Shown here piece by piece: positions 3,363-42,867 of a stretch of DNA of 43,562 nucleotides. This stretch comes from Eubacteriales bacterium (GTDB lineage Bacteria; Bacillota; Clostridia; Oscillospirales; CAG-272): positions 1 through 43,562 of the forward strand of contig JAZTWU010000078.1 of the NCBI GenBank assembly GCA_045636085.1. Reading direction: 5' to 3'. The position numbers and the translations under genes are program-made. The first letter of the stretch is position 1. Every line of letters begins with the position of its first letter. The notes under the pieces are model-generated. The model had not been told where the DNA came from. It worked only from the letters and a program-made list of their open reading frames with translations, and ran no database searches.

Positions 3363-4526
3363 ATGAATCTTGTATTGCCGCTTGCAACGCATATCCGCAT
3401 CGACGACGTGGGTTGGTTTGACGGGCGTGACCGCCGCTATTCCGGTCGCCCCTCCAGCACGGGCATTCCGCGCAACCATCACCCCTTGGATGTGCGCGCT
3501 GTCAACGAGCTTGGAAAGGCCTTGAATAGCCATATCCATTGCAATATGGTCTTTGGGGAATGGGATAAATATAACCGCCTGCGCGGCGTTCCGCACGTCA
3601 CCTGGGATGAAGCCGGCTGGGATGCGGCCGCAAATCTTGATATGAAGCTCGCCGAGGAATATTTCGAGGCATTGGAGGAGAGTGAATATATCGATTTCGG
3701 TCTGCACGGCTTGATGCACGGCTACTATGTGGACGGAAAGCAGATCACCGAGCAGCATCATTATCCCTTCCGTAAAGAATATGAGAGGGGCGAGGTGGCA
3801 TCTCCCGCGCTTCCGATCGAGGAATTTGAGCTTCTTGTCGATCTTTTCTTCAAGATCTATGATGATTGGGGCTTTAAAAAGCCCGTGATCACCTTTGGAT
3901 CGCCCAACGGATCCTATGGATTGCCGACGGATGATTTCAATATCCAAATGGCGCGCGTGATCCATAAGCGCGGCATCCGCTCTTGGAAATGGGCTTGGCC
4001 GAAGGTGGATCGCATCGATACCTGCGGCGGCATTGCTTGTATGCCCTCGGGCGAGATCGTTCCTTGGAATGCATTCGATGTCGATCCCGATCTTTTGAAG
4101 TTCACCTTCGCAGATCCCGCGGTGCGTCGCGTGCCCGATATTTGTATGCATTGGCCGAATTTCCTCAGATATAATCCCGAGAATAACCTTGAGAGAATCG
4201 AGAAGTGGAAGAATTATTATCTGCGCATCACCTCTCCCTTCGGCATGATGCTGGCACACGATGTGAATGAATCCGCATCGCAGACCTTCTATTCGAAGTA
4301 TGCCTCGGTGGATACCGTGGACGGCGGCTACCGTATCGCGTTTGACGAGGTGGATAACCGTGATACGGACTTGATCGATAAAACCTTCTATGCAAGCCTT
4401 AAGGGCGGCGAGCAGGTGAAAAAGTGCATCGGCGGCACCTTCTCGGTGTACGATGTGCGTGAGGATCACACGGTTTATAAGATCGAGCGCGAGGCAGGTG
4501 CAAAGGCTGTCGAGCTGAAGATCTGA
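3363..4526 (+). CDS. Hypothetical protein, putative NodB/polysaccharide-deacetylase-like metallohydrolase (copy 1)
   Basis: AAGGAG RBS. N-terminal IRIDDVGW and GLHGLMH resemble CE4/DUF2334 metal-binding motifs. No signal peptide. Confidence 0.55.
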   Translation: MNLVLPLATHIRIDDVGWFDGRDRRYSGRPSSTGIPRNHHPLDVRAVNELGKALNSHIHCNMVFGEWDKYNRLRGVPHVTWDEAGWDAAANLDMKLAEEYFEALEESEYIDFGLHGLMHGYYVDGKQITEQHHYPFRKEYERGEVASPALPIEEFELLVDLFFKIYDDWGFKKPVITFGSPNGSYGLPTDDFNIQMARVIHKRGIRSWKWAWPKVDRIDTCGGIACMPSGEIVPWNAFDVDPDLLKFTFADPAVRRVPDICMHWPNFLRYNPENNLERIEKWKNYYLRITSPFGMMLAHDVNESASQTFYSKYASVDTVDGGYRIAFDEVDNRDTDLIDKTFYASLKGGEQVKKCIGGTFSVYDVREDHTVYKIEREAGAKAVELKI

Positions 4527-4700: not shown

Positions 4701-5864
4701 ATGAATCTTGTATTGCCGCTTGCAACACACATCCGCATCGACGACGTGGGTTGGTTTGACGGTCGCGACCGTCGCTTTTGGGGCCGTCCCTCCAGCACGG
4801 GTATTCCGCGTAACCATCATCCCTTGGACGTGCGTGCCGTCAACGAGCTTGGAAAGGCCTTGAATAGCCATATCCATTGCAATATGGTCTTTGGGGAATG
4901 GGATAAATATAACCGCCTGCGCGGCGTTCCGCATATGACGTGGGACGAGGCGGGCTGGGATGCGGCCGCAAATCTTGATATGAAGCTTGCCGAGGAATGC
5001 TTTGAGGCTCTGGAGGCGAGCGAATATATCGATTTTGGTCTGCACGGCTTGATGCACGGATACTATGTGGACGGCAAGCAGATCACCGAACAGCAGCACT
5101 ATCCCTTCCGCAAGGCATACGATCGTGGCGAGGTGGCATCTCCCGCGCTTCCGATTGAGGAATTTGAGCTTCTTGTGGATCTTTTCTTCAAGATCTATGA
5201 TGATTGGGGCTTCAAAAAGCCCGTCATCTCCTTTGGATCGCCCAACGGATCCTTCGGTAAACCCACGGACGACTTTAATATTGCCATGGCGCGCGTGATC
5301 CATAAGCGCGGCATCCGCTCCTGGAAATGGGCGTGGCCGACGGTGGATCGCATCGATACCTGCGGCGGTATCGCTTGTATGCCCTCGAAATCGATCGTTC
5401 CTTGGAATGCCTTTGACGTCGATCCCGATCTTCTGAAATTCACCTTCGCAGATCCCGAGGAGCGCCGTGTGCCCGATATTTGTATGCATTGGCCGAATTT
5501 CCTCAGATATAATCCCGAGAATAACCTCGAGAGAATCGAGAAGTGGAAGGATTATTATCTGCGCATCACCTCTCCCTTCGGCATGATGCTGGCGCACGAT
5601 GTGAATGAATCCGCATCGCAGACCTTCTATTCGAAGTATGCCTCGGTGGATACCGTGAACGGCGGCTACCGTATCGCGTTTGACGAGGTGGATAACCGTG
5701 ATACGGACTTGATCGATAAAACTTTCTATGCAAGCCTTAAGGGCGGCGAGCAGGTGAAAAAGTGCATCGGCGGCACCTTCTCGGTGTACAATGTGCGTGA
5801 GGATCACACGGTTTATAAGATCGAGCGCGCGGCAGGTGCAAAGGCTGTCGAGCTAAAGATCTGA
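4701..5864 (+). CDS. Hypothetical protein, putative NodB/deacetylase-like (copy 2)
   Basis: Same length as copy 1, with about 21 aa differences out of 387 by manual count. Confidence 0.55.
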   Translation: MNLVLPLATHIRIDDVGWFDGRDRRFWGRPSSTGIPRNHHPLDVRAVNELGKALNSHIHCNMVFGEWDKYNRLRGVPHMTWDEAGWDAAANLDMKLAEECFEALEASEYIDFGLHGLMHGYYVDGKQITEQQHYPFRKAYDRGEVASPALPIEEFELLVDLFFKIYDDWGFKKPVISFGSPNGSFGKPTDDFNIAMARVIHKRGIRSWKWAWPTVDRIDTCGGIACMPSKSIVPWNAFDVDPDLLKFTFADPEERRVPDICMHWPNFLRYNPENNLERIEKWKDYYLRITSPFGMMLAHDVNESASQTFYSKYASVDTVNGGYRIAFDEVDNRDTDLIDKTFYASLKGGEQVKKCIGGTFSVYNVREDHTVYKIERAAGAKAVELKI

Positions 5865-14909: not shown

Positions 14910-15560
14910 ATGTCCCAATACGATTTGATTCTCTTTGATCTGGATGGAACGCTTTCTGATCCGGAAAGCGGGCTGATCAAGAGCTTCTCCTATGCGCTTT
15001 CCCGTATGGGAATCGATTGCTCGGATACCGATGCGCTCCGCCGTTTTATCGGCCCTCCGCTCTTTGAGGAATGGCAGCGCGTGTATGGCTTTTCACCCGA
15101 GGAATCGGGCCGCGCCTTGGATTATTTTCACGAATATTTTGAAAAGGATGGCTGGTGCGATAATCGGATGTACGAGGGAATTCCTTCTCTGCTTTCCGCC
15201 TTGAAGGGCGCGGGCAAAAGGATCGCTCTTGCCACCTCCAAGCCCGAAAAATACGCAAGAATGATTTTGGAATATTTCGGCATTGCGCACTATTTTGACT
15301 TTGCGGCGGGTGCTTATTCGGATCGCATCCGTGATAAAAAATGGGAGGTGCTTTCCTACGCTCTGGAGCAGTTTCCCGATATGCCGCGCAGTCGGTGCGT
15401 TCTGATCGGAGATCGGAAATACGATGCCGAGGGTGCCGCAATCTGCGGCATTGATTGTATCGGCGTTTTATGGGGGCACGGAAGTGCGGAGGAGCTGGAG
15501 GCGGGTGGCTTCGTCGCCCTCTTTGATTCCCCAACATCACTTCTTTCCTACTTGATTTAG
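14910..15560 (+). CDS. HAD-superfamily phosphatase (Gph/5'-nucleotidase-like)
   Basis: FDLDGTL, FIGPPL, ATSKP and IGDRKYD motifs. Confidence 0.9.
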   Translation: MSQYDLILFDLDGTLSDPESGLIKSFSYALSRMGIDCSDTDALRRFIGPPLFEEWQRVYGFSPEESGRALDYFHEYFEKDGWCDNRMYEGIPSLLSALKGAGKRIALATSKPEKYARMILEYFGIAHYFDFAAGAYSDRIRDKKWEVLSYALEQFPDMPRSRCVLIGDRKYDAEGAAICGIDCIGVLWGHGSAEELEAGGFVALFDSPTSLLSYLI

Positions 15561-15573
15561 CCTGTTTTTTATT

Positions 15574-15619
15574 AAGGAGCGCTTTTGTGAAAGTCTCACA
15601 AAAGCGCTCCTTCGTTTTT
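15574..15619 (+). terminator. Intrinsic terminator after the HAD gene
   Basis: 17-bp perfect stem AAGGAGCGCTTTTGTGA / TCACAAAAGCGCTCCTT followed by CGTTTTT. Confidence 0.75.
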
Positions 15620-15740
15620 GTCACAAAAGCGCCGCGCACGCAAAATATTTTCTCTTTTTAAAGGAAAACGCCTTTCGTTTTCTCTCCCCGTATGGTATGA
15701 TAGCATTAAATCATCTGATTTAAAAAGAGGGGGGCGCTTT

Positions 15741-18179
15741 ATGAAGCGTTTGATATTTTTGCTTTTGTGTCTTTTCTCGCTTGGTGCTATGGCTTCCTGC
15801 GGCATTGTACCGCCCGGGGCAGGCGGCCCGCCCGCGTCCGATGAGGAATACACAGTCACCTTTCTTTCGCAGAATGCGAGCGCCACGGTTTCGCAGAACA
15901 CCGTTAAGGTGAAGGCGGGGCAGAGCGCAGAATTTTCCGTTTCGCTCTCCGAAACGGCGGTATTCCGCAGTGTGAGCGAGGGTAGCTTTGATTATAAAAC
16001 GGGAAAGCTGACCGTTCCGAATATCACGAAGGATACGCGCGTCACCTTCATTGCTGAGGAGGTCGGATACGATACCACGGGCGAGTATCACTTCACCCTC
16101 AACGGTAGCGATATGGATACGACCTCACATTATAACCCGAATGCTCCGATCCAGCCGGGCACGCATATCAGCGTGCAGGCAGGGGATATGAACGCAAGCT
16201 TTCTTGGCTGGTCCTTGCATAAAAGCGCGGCCGAGGGTGGCACCGTCGTTTCCACCGAGCGCGCATATAGCTTCGATCTCTCGCCCTCCGTTGTGGTGGA
16301 CGGCGCGCTGACGCTTTACGCAAACTACACCGATACGAATTCTTATTATTACGATCCCAATGGCGGCGAAATTCTCCTAAGCAGTCAGAATATGACCGTC
16401 AAATCCACCTACCGTGCGCAACTCGAGGGAAACCGCCTTTGCGTTTCGCTTTCCGAAAGAGAAATGGAGGAGCTTGGATGCGCCTCACTTTTCTATGACG
16501 ACGGCACCTTTTACCGCGACGGCTTCGTTCTGATCGAATACAATACGCGCCCCGACGGCACGGGTGAGGGATATAGCCTCGGCTCGAAATTCCCGATGAC
16601 GGACGAGGAGCGTGTGCTTTATTGCATCTGGGCGCAGGTTGAGGCGGAATCTAAGTTTGCCTATACGGATTTCACCTTCCGCGGCACGAAGGGTGTGCAG
16701 ATCCGCTCTTATTTCGGCAATGCGGAGACCGTCGTGATTCCCGAAAAGCTCGGCGGCAAGCGCGTGATTTCCGTGGCGAGCGGCGCCTTTGACCATTGCT
16801 CGAATATGAAAACCCTCGTATTCTCCCGTCATTTGCTCTCCGTGGAGGACGGCGCCTTTAAGAATCTCGGCGCGCTCACAACGATCTATTATTCCGATGC
16901 AATCTACGATATCGGAAATGCCGTGATCGATGCATCGGGGTATGCAACGCTGAAGCACTTTATCGTCAATGCAACGACGGCACCGAGATTTTCCACGGCA
17001 GATGGCGCGTTTGCAAAAAAATTCTGCCGCCTTCTTGCAACGGCGGATCAGCCGCGCATTATAATGATTGCGGGCTCCTCTGCGCGGCAGGGATTTTCAA
17101 CGCCGTATCTTCAGAATCTTCTGGATCAGGGATATGCCGTGATCAATTTCGGCACCACCCGCACGACGCACGGCTTCCTCTACCTCGAGGCGATGCAGAA
17201 CTATGCAAACGAAAACGATATCATTCTCTATGCGCCCGAAAACAGCTCCTATATGATGGGAGAGGGAACGCTATACTGGAAAACCCTGCGCGATATGGAG
17301 GGAATGTATAACCTTTTCCGCTGTATTGATATCAGCGGATATTCCAATGTCTTCGGCGCGTTCTGTGAATTCAACAGCGGCTATGCCGAGGTTCCCGGCG
17401 TGGATAGCTGTTATGCACCTCGTATGGGTAACGCGCAGTATGATGCGATTGCTCCGAAAACCTATGAGGCGATTTTGGATGCCTCGGGTGACGATGTGTA
17501 TGGCGATTATCAGCACGCAACCCGCGCCGCCTATCGCTCTGCCTGCACGGCGGCCTATCAGGATACCTATGTGATCACCCTGAACAATCGCTTCAAATCG
17601 ATGTATGATACGGGATGGGACAATAAGATCCCCGATTATTGGAAGAGTGACGATTGGCAGGATCCGCAGAACGAAAGCTGGTGCAATATCGACGATCCGT
17701 ATTTCGTAACCAATATGAACCGCGCCATCCTTGCCGCAAGGAGCACGGGTGCAAAGGTGTATTTCTCCTTCTGCCCCGTCGATGCATCCCGTATTTGCGA
17801 GCAGGCGCTCGCGGATATTGACGCGTGGTGCGCGGACTATGAGGAAATGATCGCCTCCACCTATGCCTTCGACGGCATCCTCGGAGCTGCCAAGGACTAC
17901 ATAATGCACCACGAATATTTTTATAACAACGCCTTCCATCCAAACGATTACGGCCGCGTTTACAGAACCTATCAGGTGTATCTTGATCTTTGTGATCTTC
18001 TTGCTGTGGAGGACGTGCATCCTGTCGGCTATGTTGATTGGAGCGATCCCTCGGTTGAGGGCGCGTATTCCATCGGGATTGCTCTGAAAATGCAGTATCC
18101 CGGATGCTCCTTTGAACTTCTTCCCGTTGTGGGAACGGTGCGTGAGGAGCCGAAGTATTCCGCCTTTTCGGAGAATTGA
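15741..18179 (+). CDS. Lipoprotein with InlB B-repeat-like and BspA-type LRR modules plus a C-terminal SGNH/AlgX-DltD-like acyltransferase domain
   Basis: MKRLIFLLLCLFSLGAMASC lipobox. YDPNGG...YNTRPDGTG...YCIW repeat. VVIPEKLGGKRVISVASGAF LRR_5 module. IIMIAGSS, VINFG and FYNNAFHPNDYG blocks. Confidence 0.7.
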   Translation: MKRLIFLLLCLFSLGAMASCGIVPPGAGGPPASDEEYTVTFLSQNASATVSQNTVKVKAGQSAEFSVSLSETAVFRSVSEGSFDYKTGKLTVPNITKDTRVTFIAEEVGYDTTGEYHFTLNGSDMDTTSHYNPNAPIQPGTHISVQAGDMNASFLGWSLHKSAAEGGTVVSTERAYSFDLSPSVVVDGALTLYANYTDTNSYYYDPNGGEILLSSQNMTVKSTYRAQLEGNRLCVSLSEREMEELGCASLFYDDGTFYRDGFVLIEYNTRPDGTGEGYSLGSKFPMTDEERVLYCIWAQVEAESKFAYTDFTFRGTKGVQIRSYFGNAETVVIPEKLGGKRVISVASGAFDHCSNMKTLVFSRHLLSVEDGAFKNLGALTTIYYSDAIYDIGNAVIDASGYATLKHFIVNATTAPRFSTADGAFAKKFCRLLATADQPRIIMIAGSSARQGFSTPYLQNLLDQGYAVINFGTTRTTHGFLYLEAMQNYANENDIILYAPENSSYMMGEGTLYWKTLRDMEGMYNLFRCIDISGYSNVFGAFCEFNSGYAEVPGVDSCYAPRMGNAQYDAIAPKTYEAILDASGDDVYGDYQHATRAAYRSACTAAYQDTYVITLNNRFKSMYDTGWDNKIPDYWKSDDWQDPQNESWCNIDDPYFVTNMNRAILAARSTGAKVYFSFCPVDASRICEQALADIDAWCADYEEMIASTYAFDGILGAAKDYIMHHEYFYNNAFHPNDYGRVYRTYQVYLDLCDLLAVEDVHPVGYVDWSDPSVEGAYSIGIALKMQYPGCSFELLPVVGTVREEPKYSAFSEN

Positions 18180-18217
18180 CGTTTTATCTTTTCTAAGTCT
18201 ATAAAAAGGAGTCCGTT

Positions 18218-18493
18218 ATGCAGATTCTCTCACAACCTTTGCCGCTTGTTCTGTATGTGATCTTGCTGGCGGCGCATTTTCTTCCCTTGCTTTTTTCTGA
18301 AAAGCTCGGAAAAATTCTGCGATATGCAAATATAACATTACATATCATTCTTTTTGCTCTCCTTCTTTGGACTTCGGTTCCTATGGAGGAAACGGCGCTT
18401 CTTTATCTTTTATCCCTGCTTGTATATCTTGGATCTGCGCTTGTCGATGCAAAATTCCATCCCTCGGCCGCCGATAGGGAGGTGGAGAAATGA
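18218..18493 (+). CDS. Small membrane protein (about 3 TM), translationally coupled to the MBOAT gene
   Basis: AAGGAG RBS, three hydrophobic segments, and an ATGA stop/start overlap with the next gene. Confidence 0.75.
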   Translation: MQILSQPLPLVLYVILLAAHFLPLLFSEKLGKILRYANITLHIILFALLLWTSVPMEETALLYLLSLLVYLGSALVDAKFHPSAADREVEK

Positions 18494-19947
18494 GCTTTCA
18501 TTCGCTTGCCTTCGTGATCTTTTATCCTGCGGTGCTTCTTTTGTATTTTCTTTTGCCAAAGCGCCTGCGGCTTCCGATGCTCCTTGTATCCAGTTATTTC
18601 TTCTATATGTATTATCAGCCCTCGCTGATATTTTTGATAGTGGGAACAACGGCGGTCTCCTGGCTTTGCTCTCTTGCCATTTCGCGCACGCAATCCTTGC
18701 CGCTTCGCCGCTTGCTTTTGGCGCTGACGCTGACCGTTTGCCTCGGCACGCTCGTCTTTTATAAGTATTTTGATTTTCTTATGGAGAGCGTTTTTGCTCT
18801 CATCGGCCTCTTTGGCGTGCAGGCCGTGCCCCCCTCGCTTTCGCTCGTGTTACCCGTCGGAATCTCGTTTTATACCTTCCAGACGCTCTCTTATGTAATT
18901 GATGTTTACCGCGGGAAAATTGCGCACGAAAGAAATTTTCTTTATTATGCGCTCTTTGTTTCCTTTTTTCCTCAGCTCGTGGCAGGCCCGATCGAGCGCC
19001 CCGAGAACCTTTTGCCCCAGCTGAAGGCGGAGCATCGCTTCTGCAAGGCAGATGCCCTGAAGGGGGCAAGGCATATGCTCGTCGGCTTTTTCAAGAAGAT
19101 CTGCGTTGCGGATCTCGTTGCCGAAACGGTCAACCTCGTTTATAATTCGCCGCAGGGAAAAAGCCCCGTCGCCATTATCGTTGCAACGGCGCTCTTCGCC
19201 GTGCAGATCTATTGCGATTTCTCGGGCTATACGGATATTGCCATCGGCGCGGCACGTGTGATGGGTATCCGACTGATGCAAAACTTTGATCACCCCTACC
19301 GCGCGCGCACCGTGCGCGAATTCTGGTCACGCTGGCATATCTCGCTTTCCTCTTGGTTTAAGGATTATCTTTATATTCCGCTCGGCGGAAGCCGCTGTAA
19401 AAAATGGCGGCATTTGCTGAATCTGATGATCGTTTTTGCCATTTCGGGTCTATGGCACGGCGCGCGCTTCACCTTTGTTGTCTGGGGCGTTTTGCACGGG
19501 CTGTATCAGATCGTCGGCAACCTCACCTCGGCGCCTCGCGCCGCCCTTCGCCGCCGTCTCGGCGTGCGGGAGGATTCACCCCTGCTTCATATCCTGCAAA
19601 GGGCAGGCACGGTGCTTCTCGTTTGCTTTGCTTGGCTCTTTTTCCGTTCCAATTCAATGGCGGATGCCCTCGCGCTTTTATCCGCGCTCGTTTCTCCGAG
19701 CGCGTGGCAGATGCCGTTCTCGCTTTCGGAATCCTTGGGGCTTTCGCCCGTTTCGCTCCTTCTGATCCTCGTTTCGCTTCTGCTTCTTTGGCTTCTGGAT
19801 CGTCTGGCGCCGTATGGCGATGAAAGGGAGGAGTCCGTTCTTTTGAAAAACGGCGGCTTCGTTTATATCGTTTGGGCGGTGCTTCTCATCTATATGCTTC
19901 TGCTCTCCTCGGGCGAGGTCAGCAGCTTCATCTATTTTCAGTTTTAA
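18490..19947 (+). CDS. MBOAT family O-acyltransferase (AlgI/PatA/DltB-like)
   Basis: LPVGISFYTFQ, FFPQLVAGPI, DFSGYTDIAIG, FWSRWHISLSSWFKDYLYIPLGG and SGLWHGA (catalytic His). C-terminal FIYFQF. Confidence 0.95.
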   Translation: MSFHSLAFVIFYPAVLLLYFLLPKRLRLPMLLVSSYFFYMYYQPSLIFLIVGTTAVSWLCSLAISRTQSLPLRRLLLALTLTVCLGTLVFYKYFDFLMESVFALIGLFGVQAVPPSLSLVLPVGISFYTFQTLSYVIDVYRGKIAHERNFLYYALFVSFFPQLVAGPIERPENLLPQLKAEHRFCKADALKGARHMLVGFFKKICVADLVAETVNLVYNSPQGKSPVAIIVATALFAVQIYCDFSGYTDIAIGAARVMGIRLMQNFDHPYRARTVREFWSRWHISLSSWFKDYLYIPLGGSRCKKWRHLLNLMIVFAISGLWHGARFTFVVWGVLHGLYQIVGNLTSAPRAALRRRLGVREDSPLLHILQRAGTVLLVCFAWLFFRSNSMADALALLSALVSPSAWQMPFSLSESLGLSPVSLLLILVSLLLLWLLDRLAPYGDEREESVLLKNGGFVYIVWAVLLIYMLLLSSGEVSSFIYFQF

Positions 19948-19959
19948 AGGGGGGAGGGT

Positions 19960-21381
19960 ATGAAAAAAATCAAAACAGCAGCTCTTGCCGTTCTCCTTGC
20001 TTTCGCGATCCTTTCCGTTTTGCTTCTTCCCGCCGCCGCAGTGCTTTTGCCGCCTGCGTATTCCAATACCTTCGTCGGTGCCTTGGATGAAAAGGTGGAG
20101 CGCCTTGCCTCGGTCGAGGGTGCAAAGGTGGTTGTCATCGGTGGCTCCTCCGTTGCCTTCGGGCTGGATAGCGCGCTGATGGAGGAGCATCTCGGCATGC
20201 CCGTTGTCAATTTCGGGCTTTATGCCGCCGTCGGAACGAAGGCGATGCTCGAGCTCGCGCTTCCCTATATCGGGGAGGGGGATATCGTGGTTCTCGCGCC
20301 TGAAACCGATGCGCAAACGCTTTCGCTTTATTTTAACGGAGATAACACCTGGAAGGCGATCGACGATGCGCCCTCTCTCTTCTTCTCCTTTGGTAGAGAG
20401 AGTAAAAGGGAAATGCTCGGCAGTCTCTATTCCTATGCGGCCGCAAAGATCTCGGCCTTGAAAAGCGGTCCTGCCGATCCCGCCGGCGTTTATAACAGCA
20501 AAAGCTTCAACGAATACGGCGATATAATCTATCCGCGCGCCGAAAACGTGATGCCGCTCTATTACGATCCGAATACCCCCATCAACCCGAGCGCCTCTAT
20601 CGTTTCCGCGGAATTTTTGGATTTCGTGAACGATTATATTTTGCGCTGTGAGGCGAAGGGGGCACGGGTGTATTATTCCTATGCGCCGATGAATGCGGCG
20701 GCACTCGGCGCCGATGTCACGGAGCAGAGCGTCGGGGAATTTGCAGAGTTTCTTCGCGAGAACATTCGGTGCGAGCATATCAGCCTGATCGAGTCCTATA
20801 TTATGGATGCCGCGTATTTTTACGATACGAATTATCACTTAAACGATGCAGGCGTGCGCCTGCGCACAAAGCAGCTGATCGAAGATATTCGCATCGCGGA
20901 GGAAATTTATCAAGCGGCCGATATTGCGCTTCTCCCAAAGCCCGAACTTCCGCTTTTGGATGTGAAGTTCTTCGGTGAGGATGAAAATGCGAAGTATTTT
21001 GTATATGAAGCATTACAAAACGGCGGACTTTCCATCGTCGGGCTCACGGCGCTTGGTAAGACGCAGAAAAATTTAATCCTGCCTCTCGGAGCGGAAAATA
21101 CGAAGGTGATGCACGTTGGTGCCTCTGCCTTTGCCGGCGCTTCTGCCACGCGCATCACGATCCCCGAAGAGACGAATATCCGCACGATCGCCACGGGCGC
21201 CTTCGACGGATGCTCTGCCTCCTCGCTTTATATTCTCTATGATTTTTCGGATGAAGCGCAAAAGCTTTCGCCTCCTGCAAGCTTTGGTGGCCTTTCGGTC
21301 TTCGTGCCCGTAGGCTCTGCGTATCTGACGCATTATGACTGGACGGGTTATAAGCTCATAGCCATCGAAGCGGCCGAGTGA
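19960..21381 (+). CDS. Membrane-anchored SGNH/AlgX-DltD-like protein with a C-terminal BspA-type LRR module
   Basis: N-terminal signal anchor. VVIGGSS, VVNFG and FYDTNYHLNDAG blocks. C-terminal LILP...VGASAF...ITIP...IATGAFDGC. Confidence 0.75.
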   Translation: MKKIKTAALAVLLAFAILSVLLLPAAAVLLPPAYSNTFVGALDEKVERLASVEGAKVVVIGGSSVAFGLDSALMEEHLGMPVVNFGLYAAVGTKAMLELALPYIGEGDIVVLAPETDAQTLSLYFNGDNTWKAIDDAPSLFFSFGRESKREMLGSLYSYAAAKISALKSGPADPAGVYNSKSFNEYGDIIYPRAENVMPLYYDPNTPINPSASIVSAEFLDFVNDYILRCEAKGARVYYSYAPMNAAALGADVTEQSVGEFAEFLRENIRCEHISLIESYIMDAAYFYDTNYHLNDAGVRLRTKQLIEDIRIAEEIYQAADIALLPKPELPLLDVKFFGEDENAKYFVYEALQNGGLSIVGLTALGKTQKNLILPLGAENTKVMHVGASAFAGASATRITIPEETNIRTIATGAFDGCSASSLYILYDFSDEAQKLSPPASFGGLSVFVPVGSAYLTHYDWTGYKLIAIEAAE

Positions 21382-39945: not shown

Positions 39946-42867
39946 TTAGCGTGCGTAAATCTTAATGCCGTCCTGTGCGGTAATGTTGGAAACAACTGCC
40001 CAAATATAGGTGCTGCTATTGCTCAGAGTGGCTTCATCCAGTGCGTTGCCGGTCACGGTAACCTTAAGAACGGCCGAGTTCGAGTTGGATCTGATATTGA
40101 TGTGGCCGTTCTGAATCGTGTTGTTCGTAATGGTGATATTGTCGTGTGCGCTGATGTGAATGGGTGCGTTCACGAGCGTATTTCCGCCGATAAAGAAGGA
40201 CTTGGCATCCTTTGCATTCTCGTTATCGATAATGCCGCGCGTCCAGTTGATAAAGGAGGAATTGGTGATAACGGCAGAGGTGTTAAACTGCGCGCTGCTC
40301 TGACCTTCGCCGAAGATAATAGCTCTGGTATTTGTGTAAGCCGTGTTTCCGATAAAGGTGCAGTTGTCCACGGTGAGATTGTACATTGCGGAAATTGCTC
40401 TGAAGCGATTGTTTGGCGTGGTGGCCTCGCTCAGATCAAAGGTGAGGTTTTTCACAGTGGCGTCCGCTTCAAATCTGAATACCGAGTAATTGTTTGAGTC
40501 GTCAATCGCCCCGGTGAGCTTCAGCGTGTGCCCTGCACCGTCGATCACAACATCGTAAAAGGTTTTTGTGCCCTGGTAGCGGTTATCCCACTTTTCGTTG
40601 AATGTGATGTCGTTTGCAAAAACAATATTCTTCTTTGCAATGAGCGCGGTCTTGAGCTCATCTGCGGTGGAAACGAGAACCGTGGATGCGCTCTTGGGAG
40701 CGATCGTATTGCCGTTGATTGCAAAGAAATCGGCATCAGCACCGCCGTTCAGAACGGCGAGAGCATCCTCGAGAGCAACCGCGGACGTCTTTCCGATCTC
40801 AGCGAGCGTGCCCGTGGAGATGTCGTAGCTGGTCTTGTTAACATCGGATCCAAGGTAAACGGTGCCCTCGGAGGAAACCGTGCCTGCGTTCAGGCAGTAG
40901 CTTGCCGTGTCACCTGCTCCGTACTGTGCCTTGGGGGCAATTGCACCTGCGCCGTCAGCGCCGTAAATCGCGCCGTCGTTATAGCAGTAGCTTGCCTTCA
41001 CGGTGCCGTAAAGGCTATATCCGATACCTGCCGCATAAGACTGTACGGCAGTAATCTTTCCGTGGTTTGCGCAGTAGGCGAAGGTTGCGCTCGAGCCGGG
41101 CGTTTGTCCAAGAATACCGGCTGCGGAAGAGTTCGCATTGTCCGGCGTGGAGGTAACCGCACCGTAGTTCGTGCAGTATTCGTAAGTAGAAGCGGCCTTC
41201 TGAACGCCGGCGATACCTGCGGCCGGCTCGATGCCGTCAGAGGTGATCTTTCCGTAGTTCACGCAATTCTTCACAGAGCCTGCGAAGCCGTGTGCAATAC
41301 CGCTGGCGCCCGCGGAGCCGTAAACGGTTCCGTAGTTCACGCAGTCCTGAATGGATGCGTTAGAGGTCACCCAGGAAGCGATACCGGCGGCTCTGGTTGC
41401 ATTGATGGTTGCGAAGTTCACGCAGCTTTTGAGCACGGCGTTCGCGGCGTTATGAAGAATACCACCTGCATAGCTGGGTGCTTCGATCTCGCCGGAAACG
41501 ATTACGTTTTCGATCGTGATGCCTTCAGCTGCAACGCAAACAACGCCTGCGGCGTGCTTGGTGGAGGTGAGGCTCAGGTTCTCAAAATAAACGTTACGGA
41601 TGATGGAGCTTGCATCTGCGTGAGAAATAAAGGATGCATAATCGTGATTCTTCACGGTCAGGTTCGAGATGGTGTAGCCATTGCCGTCGAAGGTGCCCTT
41701 GAAGGGAGCTTCGGCGTTTCCGGCGGGCGTCCAGTCGATGTCGGCAAGGTCGATATCGTTTGCAAGAACGAAGGTGCCGCCCTTTGCAAGGTTATCAACG
41801 AGCTCGGAGGCTTTGGTGATCAGGCTCGTGTAGCTAATGATCTCAAAGGGGCTGAAGTCGCTCACGGTGAAGTAAACGTAGCCGGTTGCGGGATCATAAA
41901 CGGGGTTCTGCACGGGCTCACCCTTGTGAAGAATCTTGCTGAGGTTTCTGTTGAGACCAATGAAATAAGCGACCTCGTAGAAAACGCCGCTTTCGCTCTC
42001 AACCTTAACGCCGTCCTTCGTCAGATCCAGATGGAAGGAAATAACGTCGTTGCCGGACTCGTCAAGTGCGTTCTCAACGTTGGAGATAACGGCCTCGTAT
42101 TCGCCGGGCTCGGTGCCAATGGGAAGGGTGATGGTTGCATTACCAACGGTCATATCCTTCTCTACGGTGAGGGGCTCCTTGACCTCGGTGGTGCTTACCT
42201 CGGGATAGGTAGAGCCGCTGTCAAAGAGGTTGTCGAAGCTATCCGATTCGTGGGAGAGCTGGGTTGCAAGAACCTGAATGGAGAAGCTGGTGCCGATGTA
42301 CTTATCCATATACTCATTTCCAGCCGAATCCTGCATCTTGAGTGCGATGGTAACGGTGTCGCTCGTGTCAGCCTTCAACGTACCGTAGCCGGTGGTACCG
42401 AGGTTATTAAGCACCTCGCGGAGCGTGCCGATCTTCATATCGGCGGTGAGCTCGTCGCTGTCGGCGATCTGCACGGCAGGATCAACGTAATAAACGTCGA
42501 TCACATTGGCAAGGTCGGTGACCTCGCCGTTTGCAACGAAGTTCACCTTGTACTTAAGAGCAAGCGAACCCTCGTTGGCGATCTTCACATGGCGAACCAT
42601 CGCGAAGCCGGGCTCCCAGAGGGAGTAATCAAAGATTGCAACGGAAGAAGCATCCGCCCAATCCGCCGCGTCATCGGCAGGAACGGCCTTTGTTCCGTCC
42701 GCCCAATACATCTCAACATCGAGATTTCCTGCGGTGATGATGTTGTTTGCGCTGGCAACACTATCGGTAAACCAAGCAAACGTGGTTCCAACGAGCATCG
42801 AGAAGCAAAGCGCAATGGAAAGAACGCTTGCAACCAAAGCTCGTTTCACTGAGTAATTTTGAGTCAT
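39946..42867 (-). CDS. Large SipW-dependent (TasA/CalY-class) surface protein with GLUG-like and right-handed beta-helix domains
   Basis: KRAL...LVGTTFAWFTD....N.ITAGNLDV SipW-class signal. WEPG...VKIANEGSLALKY TasA-like domain. DWTP...FKGTFDGNGYTISNL and repeated C-x-N-x-G-x-I coils. GGAGG RBS. Confidence 0.8.
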   Translation of the reverse strand: MTQNYSVKRALVASVLSIALCFSMLVGTTFAWFTDSVASANNIITAGNLDVEMYWADGTKAVPADDAADWADASSVAIFDYSLWEPGFAMVRHVKIANEGSLALKYKVNFVANGEVTDLANVIDVYYVDPAVQIADSDELTADMKIGTLREVLNNLGTTGYGTLKADTSDTVTIALKMQDSAGNEYMDKYIGTSFSIQVLATQLSHESDSFDNLFDSGSTYPEVSTTEVKEPLTVEKDMTVGNATITLPIGTEPGEYEAVISNVENALDESGNDVISFHLDLTKDGVKVESESGVFYEVAYFIGLNRNLSKILHKGEPVQNPVYDPATGYVYFTVSDFSPFEIISYTSLITKASELVDNLAKGGTFVLANDIDLADIDWTPAGNAEAPFKGTFDGNGYTISNLTVKNHDYASFISHADASSIIRNVYFENLSLTSTKHAAGVVCVAAEGITIENVIVSGEIEAPSYAGGILHNAANAVLKSCVNFATINATRAAGIASWVTSNASIQDCVNYGTVYGSAGASGIAHGFAGSVKNCVNYGKITSDGIEPAAGIAGVQKAASTYEYCTNYGAVTSTPDNANSSAAGILGQTPGSSATFAYCANHGKITAVQSYAAGIGYSLYGTVKASYCYNDGAIYGADGAGAIAPKAQYGAGDTASYCLNAGTVSSEGTVYLGSDVNKTSYDISTGTLAEIGKTSAVALEDALAVLNGGADADFFAINGNTIAPKSASTVLVSTADELKTALIAKKNIVFANDITFNEKWDNRYQGTKTFYDVVIDGAGHTLKLTGAIDDSNNYSVFRFEADATVKNLTFDLSEATTPNNRFRAISAMYNLTVDNCTFIGNTAYTNTRAIIFGEGQSSAQFNTSAVITNSSFINWTRGIIDNENAKDAKSFFIGGNTLVNAPIHISAHDNITITNNTIQNGHINIRSNSNSAVLKVTVTGNALDEATLSNSSTYIWAVVSNITAQDGIKIYAR

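Follow-up and report, generated by a model that had tools for sequence, protein, structure and literature searches.

The window analysed here is a 43,562-nucleotide (nt) stretch of contig JAZTWU010000078.1 of an Eubacteriales bacterium (assembly GCA_045636085.1), in which four closely packed open reading frames (ORFs), termed A, B, C, and D, occupy positions 15741–21381 of the forward strand. The four genes probably encode an extracytoplasmic O-acylation machine of the kind that pairs a membrane-bound O-acyltransferase (MBOAT) with SGNH-fold proteins, of the PatA/AlgI type and fed by acyl-CoA; we assign this reading a probability of about 70%. C belongs to the MBOAT family and ends in an acyl-shuttle motif, A and D carry paralogous domains with a predicted SGNH fold and predicted leucine-rich repeats (LRRs), the gene order is conserved among relatives, and natural fusions of D to A occur. 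An earlier sequence-only reading had described the locus as a lipoprotein, a 91-residue membrane protein, an MBOAT with a C-terminal FIYxxF tyrosine acyl-shuttle motif, and an anchored second partner, both partners being SGNH-like and carrying LRRs in mirror-image order. All four ORFs were found at these positions, and each of these descriptions is upheld by the results given below.

In the proposed mechanism, C would be charged at the cytoplasmic face of the membrane with an acyl group, most probably the acetyl of acetyl-CoA, and with His323 it would move that group onto Tyr482 of its C-terminal FIYFQF at the outer face. From Tyr482 the group would go to the nucleophilic serine of an extracellular SGNH domain, which would transfer it to a hydroxyl on a molecule of the cell envelope. 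One MBOAT would serve two paralogous SGNH proteins: D, held beside C by its membrane helix, and A, a lipoprotein that has beta domains in addition. The analogy with AlgJ and AlgX leads us to lean tentatively towards transfer in the order Tyr482, D, A, acceptor. The LRR modules, which in the sequence-only reading would select the acceptor, may hold the acceptor, or they may hold A and D together.

The assignment of C was determined by family searches. C matched the Pfam family MBOAT (PF03062) at 88.2 bits (cut-off 27; E value 8.2e-25) and MBOAT_2 at 38.6 bits (cut-off 25). His283, His323 (in the sequence W-H-G), and the C-terminal Phe480-Ile-Tyr482-Phe-x-Phe485 were invariant in 31 aligned relatives, and the MBOAT C termini at related loci read FIYFQF in 77 of 78 cases and FIYFAF in one. 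His323 and His283 are the putative equivalents of His315 of CjPatA. Hydrophobic segments lie near the C terminus at residues 410–428 and 455–473, and C shows the features tested for fused-motif MBOATs of the PatA/AlgI type, with FxYxxF at the extreme end after extra hydrophobic segments. The motif matches the FxYxxF published for DltX and for PatA/AlgI-type MBOATs (PMC12148441). According to that source, PatA uses acetyl-CoA to acetylate itself on the Tyr of the FxYxxF at its C terminus, and PatB takes an acetyl-peptide (FIYANF) as the donor; MBOATs with a fused FxYxxF have neither a carrier protein nor DltX, whereas DltB hands D-alanine to the Tyr of the DltX FxYxxF and then to the Ser of DltD (PMC12148441).

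We infer an acyl-CoA-fed relay because C has the fused motif and because this genome (85.6% complete) yielded a single MBOAT but neither a DltA over the cut-off nor a Pfam DltD. Of the 60 other genomes sampled in the phylum, 2 gave a strong match to DltD, and a weak partial match was obtained once. The lack of an adjoining carrier protein or ligase also fits an acyl-CoA donor.

We examined the folds of A and D with AlphaFold models built from 32 relatives for A (predicted local distance difference test, pLDDT, 88.8; predicted template modelling score, pTM, 0.79) and 31 relatives for D (pLDDT 90.1; pTM 0.83). The models were compared with 48,161 solved chains by a fold search independent of Foldseek, for which Z 7–8 is the stated background, and the best 50 rows for each protein were considered. 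For D, 47 of these rows fell on the SGNH domain (Z 11.2 to 8.1) and 3 on the LRR. The SGNH rows included CgnD (8a2n_A, Z 11.2) and DltD (7dxm_A, Z 10.7), the latter with the longest alignment (234 residues), as well as sialate esterase, RGAE, OatA-C, PatB (7tjb, Z 8.4), and OafA. Foldseek agreed weakly for D, with DltD 3bma_F at E 1.7e-4 and five matches at E ≤ 0.001. For A (Z 10.8 to 7.6), the matches were YxiM (2o14_A, Z 10.8), RGAE (1deo_A, Z 10.4), DltD (6pfx_B, Z 8.8), the peptidoglycan O-acetylesterase Ape1 (4k3u_A, Z 8.1), PatB (7tjb, Z 8.1), and many carbohydrate esterases. All non-LRR rows among the best 50 for either protein were SGNH-fold proteins, including DltD, OatA-C, PatB, and OafA. 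As modelled, A and D each hold an SGNH fold.

By sequence comparison, the SGNH domains of A and D are paralogues (BLASTP E 1e-15 with 25% identity; hhalign probability 99.8%, E 6.8e-28 over 284 columns), that of A carrying an insertion of about 90 residues relative to that of D. The two domains have in common the motif series GSS...NFG...PE...(D/N)xxxH. Gly61-Gly62-Ser63-Ser64, Asn84-Phe85-Gly86, Pro114-Glu115, Asp289-Thr290-Asn291, and His293 were invariant in the D family (31/31), and Gly445-Ser446-Ser447, Asn469, Gly471, Pro499-Glu500-Asn501-Ser502, and His733 were invariant in the A family (32/32). Secondary structure assigned to the models by DSSP places Ser-Ser right after strand 1, Asn-x-Gly after strand 2, Pro-Glu after strand 3, and His before the last long helix, which are the fold positions occupied by SGNH blocks I, II, III, and V in PMC9487903. 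Both proteins are the products of real genes rather than chance ORFs, since 1017 relatives of D and 346 of A were counted at E ≤ 0.001 among 8000 scored candidates for each; the few relatives with a source name are a "hypothetical protein" or a "leucine-rich repeat protein" of Clostridia. A look-alike cluster in the atlas (score 0.96) carries PF27429 (LB_356), a newer Pfam family, on 66% of its members.

LRR_5 (PF13306) gave the sole Pfam signal in A and D, at 26.1 and 17.9 bits, respectively, under the cut-off of 27.7. Among relatives, it was found in 32 of 32 for A (best E 2.1e-10) and in 11 of 31 for D at E ≤ 1. Sequence gives a weak LRR signal for the proteins of the window, whereas the fold of their models shows the LRRs clearly: the repeats of both proteins superpose on the BspA/TpLRR structure 6mlx and on gut-bacterial LRR_5 proteins (4oju, 4gt6, and 4fs7). 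Unlike those of BspA/TpLRR surface proteins, the modules of A and D are short (approximately 110–130 residues) and are fused to an enzyme domain. In A the LRR precedes the SGNH domain and in D it follows. D has a single N-terminal hydrophobic helix, which would anchor it in the membrane. The region of A before its LRR had been called B-repeat-like in the sequence-only reading; it is beta-rich by the model, and Flg_new_2 was found in 3 of 32 relatives, although this match is weak (best E 0.0013). Foldseek gave 2kyw for this region with a probability of 0.97 at E 0.057.

The conservation of gene order was examined in the best 80 of 305 relatives of D, obtained by scanning one genome per species; these loci are almost all from gut-sample metagenome-assembled genomes of Oscillospiraceae, Eubacteriales, or Clostridia. 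An MBOAT gene lies upstream of D in 78 of the 80, and in 77 of these 78 D starts no more than 200 nt from the MBOAT end. An A-like gene of at least 500 residues ends within 900 nt of C in all 64 loci that have more than 2.6 kb of upstream sequence, and all 5 same-genus loci show A, a small ORF, C, and D in that sequence. The flanking genes are not kept: the Mur ligase and MgtE of the window recur at 4 of the 80 loci, PGA_cap at 1, and GH20 and the pyruvyl-transferase fusion at none. Because the flanks change while the A-B-C-D order stays, the four genes travel as a module, and the sequence-only reading, which had staked its proposal on their being conserved together, is supported on this point; the other outcome that it had named as contrary, GSS/H domains that do not model as SGNH folds, was not seen either.

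Furthermore, A and D are joined in single proteins in some species. A profile of the SGNH domain matched 5672 representative clusters at E ≤ 0.001, of which 1122 also passed E ≤ 1e-30. Among 150 representatives listed, 9 have at least 900 residues, and 8 of these are natural D–A fusions of 972–1111 residues, in which the beta-domain, LRR, and SGNH portions of A come after a complete D. These fusions argue that A and D work together. In two other variants, six loci carry two or three tandem A-like paralogues upstream of the MBOAT gene, and in one genome of the genus a further D-like gene stands alone on a 6-kb contig, without A or C at its side.

B contains three hydrophobic segments, and its His42 was invariant in 26 aligned relatives. 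It had no family match in Pfam or NCBIfam, and its atlas scores reached at most 0.87, with unnamed clusters only. A match to the hidden Markov model of B was found directly upstream of C in 48 of 78 loci; of the other 30, 7 are truncated by a contig end, which leaves 23, and in 16 of these a small hydrophobic ORF takes the place of B. From its conserved position and its start–stop overlap with C, we regard B as a probable small membrane subunit of the complex. B is not a DltX, because it does not end in FxYxxF.

Several observations weigh against the proposed machine. The fold Z scores of 10–11 are only moderately over the background, although the lists are uniform. Block V is non-canonical, with the acid at position −4 from His (DTNYH) rather than −3, and with Asn in place of the acid in the A of the window. 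The acid is Asp in all 31 members of the D family, and in the A family it is Asp in 21 and Asn in 11 of 32. The difference between Asn in A (FYNNAFH) and Asp in D (FYDTNYH), to which the sequence-only reading had drawn attention, is thus real in the window but does not distinguish the two families. Some active SGNH enzymes are described as having no block V acid (PMC9487903). D is also without the conserved Asn of block III, having Pro114-Glu115 only, whereas A has Pro-Glu-Asn501 in 32 of 32. In searches with 32 A and 31 D relatives, the two proteins reached no curated SGNH, DltD, or AlgX model of Pfam or NCBIfam: DltD (PF04914) gave no match for A or D at E ≤ 0.1, Lipase_GDSL_2 (PF13472) matched 3 of 32 in the A family at E ≤ 1 (best 0.01) and none of 31 in the D family, and AlgX/AlgJ (PF16822) matched 1 of 31 in the D family at E 0.36. 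The hhalign comparison of the D family with two DltD sequences of the same phylum was insignificant (probability 3.7%), and the D-family profile found no match among solved structures at E ≤ 10; single-sequence searches of solved structures returned only an LRR row at E 0.4 for D and LRR proteins only for A. At the level of the locus, A is followed directly by D in 2 of the 80 loci, with no MBOAT gene between them, and the module is patchy, with strong D matches in 6 of 24 same-genus genomes and no strong match in the 16 genomes that represent other families of the order. Finally, nothing at the related loci identified the donor or the acceptor, and no polysaccharide or teichoic-acid gene was consistently adjacent.

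We compared the module with three known systems. The sequence-only reading had likened it to both AlgI/AlgJ/AlgX and PatA/PatB; two SGNH-like partners are indeed present in the former, but PatA/PatB has one. The PatA/PatB system, which O-acetylates peptidoglycan in Neisseria and Campylobacter, resembles the module in that its MBOAT has two extra C-terminal helices and FxYxxF (FIYANF in NgPatA, FIYFQF in C), in that no carrier protein or DltX is described, and in that the SGNH partner PatB is membrane-anchored with the catalytic order Ser...Asp...His (PMC12148441). It differs in that the module has two SGNH paralogues, each fused to LRRs, together with a conserved small membrane protein; moreover, PatB has no sequence-level match to A or D, and the host here is a Gram-positive-type Clostridium relative.

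The AlgI/AlgJ/AlgF/AlgX system, which O-acetylates alginate in Pseudomonas, likewise has one MBOAT, two SGNH-like proteins, and a fourth, non-catalytic component (PMC4148444). AlgJ resembles D in being tethered by a membrane helix, and AlgX, with its carbohydrate-binding module, resembles A, with its beta domains and LRR, in carrying an extra binding module; the source describes AlgJ as a membrane-tethered esterase with no polymer binding and AlgX as the terminal transferase with the binding module (PMC4148444). The likeness does not extend to the catalytic residues, since AlgJ and AlgX have the order Asp-His...Ser (D190/H192/S288 in AlgJ), with Asp and His in the cap domain, whereas the order in A and D is Ser...Asp...His, with Asn at the acid position in the A of the window (PMC4148444). 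In addition, AlgF is periplasmic (PMC4148444) whereas B is a membrane protein, and, unlike in the alginate system, no polysaccharide synthase adjoins the operon. The DltB/DltX/DltD system for the D-alanylation of teichoic acid also combines an MBOAT, an anchored SGNH protein, and a small membrane protein, and DltD, which is among the best fold matches of D, shares a GSS-type block I with it. Here, however, the shuttle motif is on C itself, B is without the FxYxxF end, C falls under the DltB cut-off, and neither a DltA over its cut-off nor DltC or DltD was found in this genome. Judged by their titles and abstract openings, the papers listed in searches of the literature outside subscription journals describe no LRR-fused SGNH pair with an MBOAT and a small membrane protein.

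The order in which the two SGNH proteins act can be read in other ways. A and D may act in parallel, each charged from Tyr482 and each modifying different positions or acceptors with no transfer between them, which we consider somewhat less probable than the sequential order. Both proteins retain the invariant Ser-Ser, Asn-x-Gly, and His, as parallel partners would, and the two or three A-like paralogues at the six loci mentioned above resemble a diversification of the acceptor-facing component. Against this stand the nearly universal A-B-C-D order with exactly one D and the D–A fusions, which fit a fixed pair. Moreover, the two SGNH-like proteins of the alginate system are described as acting in sequence and not redundantly (PMC4148444).

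Another arrangement, which we regard as unlikely, would make D alone the transferase from the MBOAT Tyr to the acceptor and A an opposing O-acyl esterase that trims or removes the modification. An O-acetylpeptidoglycan esterase is encoded beside patA and patB, and A would resemble it. The match of A to Ape1, its many matches to carbohydrate esterases, its canonical block III Asn, which D does not have, and its extra putative binding domains are consistent with such a role. The fold, however, cannot part esterases from transferases, as PatB, OatA-C, and DltD stand in the same list, and the 8 fusions among the 150 representatives listed would then join a transferase to its antagonist, which is conceivable but less to be expected than the joining of two steps of one pathway.

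A Dlt-like aminoacylation, in which a carrier protein encoded elsewhere would give D-alanine or another amino acid to the MBOAT and D would be a DltD analogue, is very improbable. DltD gives the longest alignment among the best fold matches of D, and the best NCBIfam match of C is DltB (TIGR04091). An AMP-binding enzyme lies upstream on the opposite strand in 10 of 131 scanned first-neighbour ORFs, all in distant relatives, and the five such neighbours that were scanned with NCBIfam scored 284–298 bits, just below the amino-acid-adenylation cut-off of 317. C, however, scored 159 bits against an equivalog cut-off of 375 for DltB and was rejected as a DltB equivalog. It carries the fused FxYxxF that DltB is without (PMC12148441), as do the MBOATs beside the AMP-binding genes; neither a DltA over the cut-off nor DltD was found in the genome, no carrier-protein ORF was seen at L073, one of the ten loci with an AMP-binding neighbour, and the profile comparison with DltD was insignificant.

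It is hardly credible that the genes form no functional unit, with A and D as surface esterases that help the cell to feed on acetylated glycans of plant or host origin, and with an unrelated MBOAT beside them: many of the best fold matches are carbohydrate esterases, the hosts are gut anaerobes, and a GH20 gene follows D in the window, but the genes stay in order amid changing flanks (77 of 78 and 64 of 64 loci), GH20 is near none of the 80 loci, and D is membrane-anchored beside an enzyme whose shuttle motif needs an outside acceptor enzyme (PMC12148441).

We also searched for clues to the acceptor of the proposed O-acylation machine. A CsaB-type polymer, one of the acceptors put forward in the sequence-only reading, is a candidate that rests solely on the gene for a glycosyltransferase–pyruvyl transferase fusion 4.4 kb upstream of the operon, which is near none of the 80 related loci. 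SLH gave one marginal match in the genome (22.9 bits). The genome yielded no acyltransferase of the AT3 (OatA) type and no DHHW; the DHHW result is uninformative because its control matched none of 14 control genomes. Within the genus, AT3 was clear in 1 and weak or broken in 1 of 7 genomes with the module (that of the window included), and it was found in 10 of 18 genomes without the module. This pattern supports no conclusion, because the genomes are few and related and the AT3 frames are short (approximately 330–430 residues). A fused AT3–SGNH protein is expected to be longer than that. No RNA dataset turned up for the locus, and three DNA runs that share 5–6% of sampled words have no bearing on habitat. 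It is conceivable, but quite improbable, that the LRRs aim acyl transfer at a protein, a glycoprotein, host mucin, or the surface of a neighbouring cell rather than at a wall polysaccharide made next door.

The features of the locus are summarized in Table 1. The spacing of the genes (38 nt between A and B, an overlap of the B stop and the C start at 18490–18493, and 12 nt between C and D) fits one operon, and a purine-rich ribosome-binding stretch precedes A, B, and D. The longest frame of A begins at TTG 15618, within the promoter-like and terminator-like region; we place the start at ATG 15741 because 32 relatives all have Cys20 and almost all have Met1 and Lys2. As the relatives align from Met1-Lys2 and keep Cys20, A is a lipoprotein that starts at 15741, with a signal peptide. 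The promoter-like site is weak, because the region contains 8 such sites where 6.2 are expected. The operon is preceded by a Mur-ligase-like gene, MgtE, and a HAD gene and is followed by GH20 and PGA_cap genes, the last on the opposite strand. No carrier protein, ligase, or polymer synthase is adjacent to it in the window, as the sequence-only reading had noted for an acyl carrier protein, a ligase, and a polysaccharide synthase.

Table 1. Coordinates of the operon, its domains and motifs, and nearby features in the window.
Feature	Position	Strand	Details
Gene A, 812-residue lipoprotein	15741..18179	+	signal peptide with Cys20, beta-rich domains, LRR, SGNH-like domain; model pLDDT 88.8
Gene B, 91 residues	18218..18493	+	three hydrophobic segments; no known family
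Gene C, 485-residue MBOAT	18490..19947	+	invariant His283 and His323
Gene D, 473 residues	19960..21381	+	N-terminal membrane helix, SGNH-like domain, LRR; model pLDDT 90.1
A, beta-strand-rich domains (residues 35–300), possibly InlB B-repeat-like	15843..16640	+	from DSSP of the model
A, predicted LRR of BspA/TpLRR type (residues ~300–415)	16638..16985	+	6mlx_A Z 12.8, root-mean-square deviation (rmsd) 1.9, 109 aligned
A, predicted SGNH-fold domain (residues 436–757)	17046..18011	+	Ser446/Ser447, Asn469-x-Gly471, Pro499-Glu500-Asn501, Asn729...His733
C, FIYFQF, FxYxxF acyl-shuttle motif	19927..19944	+	C terminus of C; Tyr482 codon 19933-19935
D, predicted SGNH-fold domain (residues 36–318)	20065..20913	+	Ser63/Ser64, Asn84-Phe85-Gly86, Pro114-Glu115, Asp289...His293
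D, predicted LRR of BspA/TpLRR type (residues ~340–470)	20977..21369	+	6mlx_A Z 10.1, rmsd 2.6, 104 aligned; 4oju_A Z 9.5
Terminator-like hairpin	15574..15612	+	17-bp stem, then T run; 3' of the HAD gene; upstream operon boundary, parting HAD from A
Promoter-like site	15618..15646	+	TTGTCA, 17-nt spacer, CAAAAT; consensus match only
GT4 glycosyltransferase–polysaccharide pyruvyl transferase fusion, CsaB-like, 685 residues	9310-11367	-	

Some neighbouring genes recur beside the module or stand out in the window. The first upstream neighbour, on the same strand, is a HAD_2 phosphatase at 14910-15560 (+), which resembles PpaX and phosphoglycolate phosphatase below the curated cut-offs; HAD_2 is likewise the first same-strand upstream neighbour in 16 of the loci scanned, whether or not the remaining flanks are alike. 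Many loci have small predicted lipoproteins beside the module, with one of approximately 175 residues downstream of D in 15 loci and one of approximately 160 residues upstream of A in 10. They are absent from the window and had no Pfam match at E ≤ 1e-5 and, for the five scanned, no NCBIfam match. At L073, the AMP-binding gene adjoins ORFs that resemble, by eye only, a pyridoxal phosphate-dependent decarboxylase and a hexapeptide transferase, and D is followed by a glutamate racemase gene; at L099, another locus with an AMP-binding neighbour, D is followed by a gene of the Asp/Glu racemase family. Elsewhere in the window, two adjacent 387-residue ORFs at 3363-4526 and 4701-5864 (+) are 95% identical (366/387) with no Pfam match at E ≤ 1e-5, which looks like a recent tandem duplication of an unnamed gene. 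A 973-residue ORF at 39946-42867 (−) matches camelysin-type Peptidase_M73 over its first 120 residues (E 6.7e-10), the rest having no Pfam match at E ≤ 1e-5.

MBOAT–SGNH pairs put acyl groups on peptidoglycan, alginate, cellulose, and teichoic acids, and acyl groups of the envelope alter resistance to lysozyme and antimicrobial peptides as well as immune recognition. The module described here represents a large unnamed branch of this machinery, carried by uncultured Clostridia from the gut of ruminants and other hosts. Its proposed working principle, the MBOAT–SGNH relay, is a known one; the fusion to BspA-type LRRs, the duplication into a fixed SGNH pair, and the small membrane protein are described in none of the papers found. 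With its double SGNH, its LRRs, and its natural fusions, the module offers a compact system for studying how an acyl group leaves the MBOAT tyrosine, and it bears on why some pathways use two SGNH proteins, a question posed for AlgJ and AlgX in PMC4148444. If the LRRs did aim the transfer, this would be the first bacterial MBOAT–SGNH system in which the acceptor is chosen by protein-binding repeats, with SGNH domains that form a fixed pair, fused in some species, and with a new small membrane subunit. Knowing the acceptor would bring to light a surface modification that current annotation misses in abundant gut commensals.

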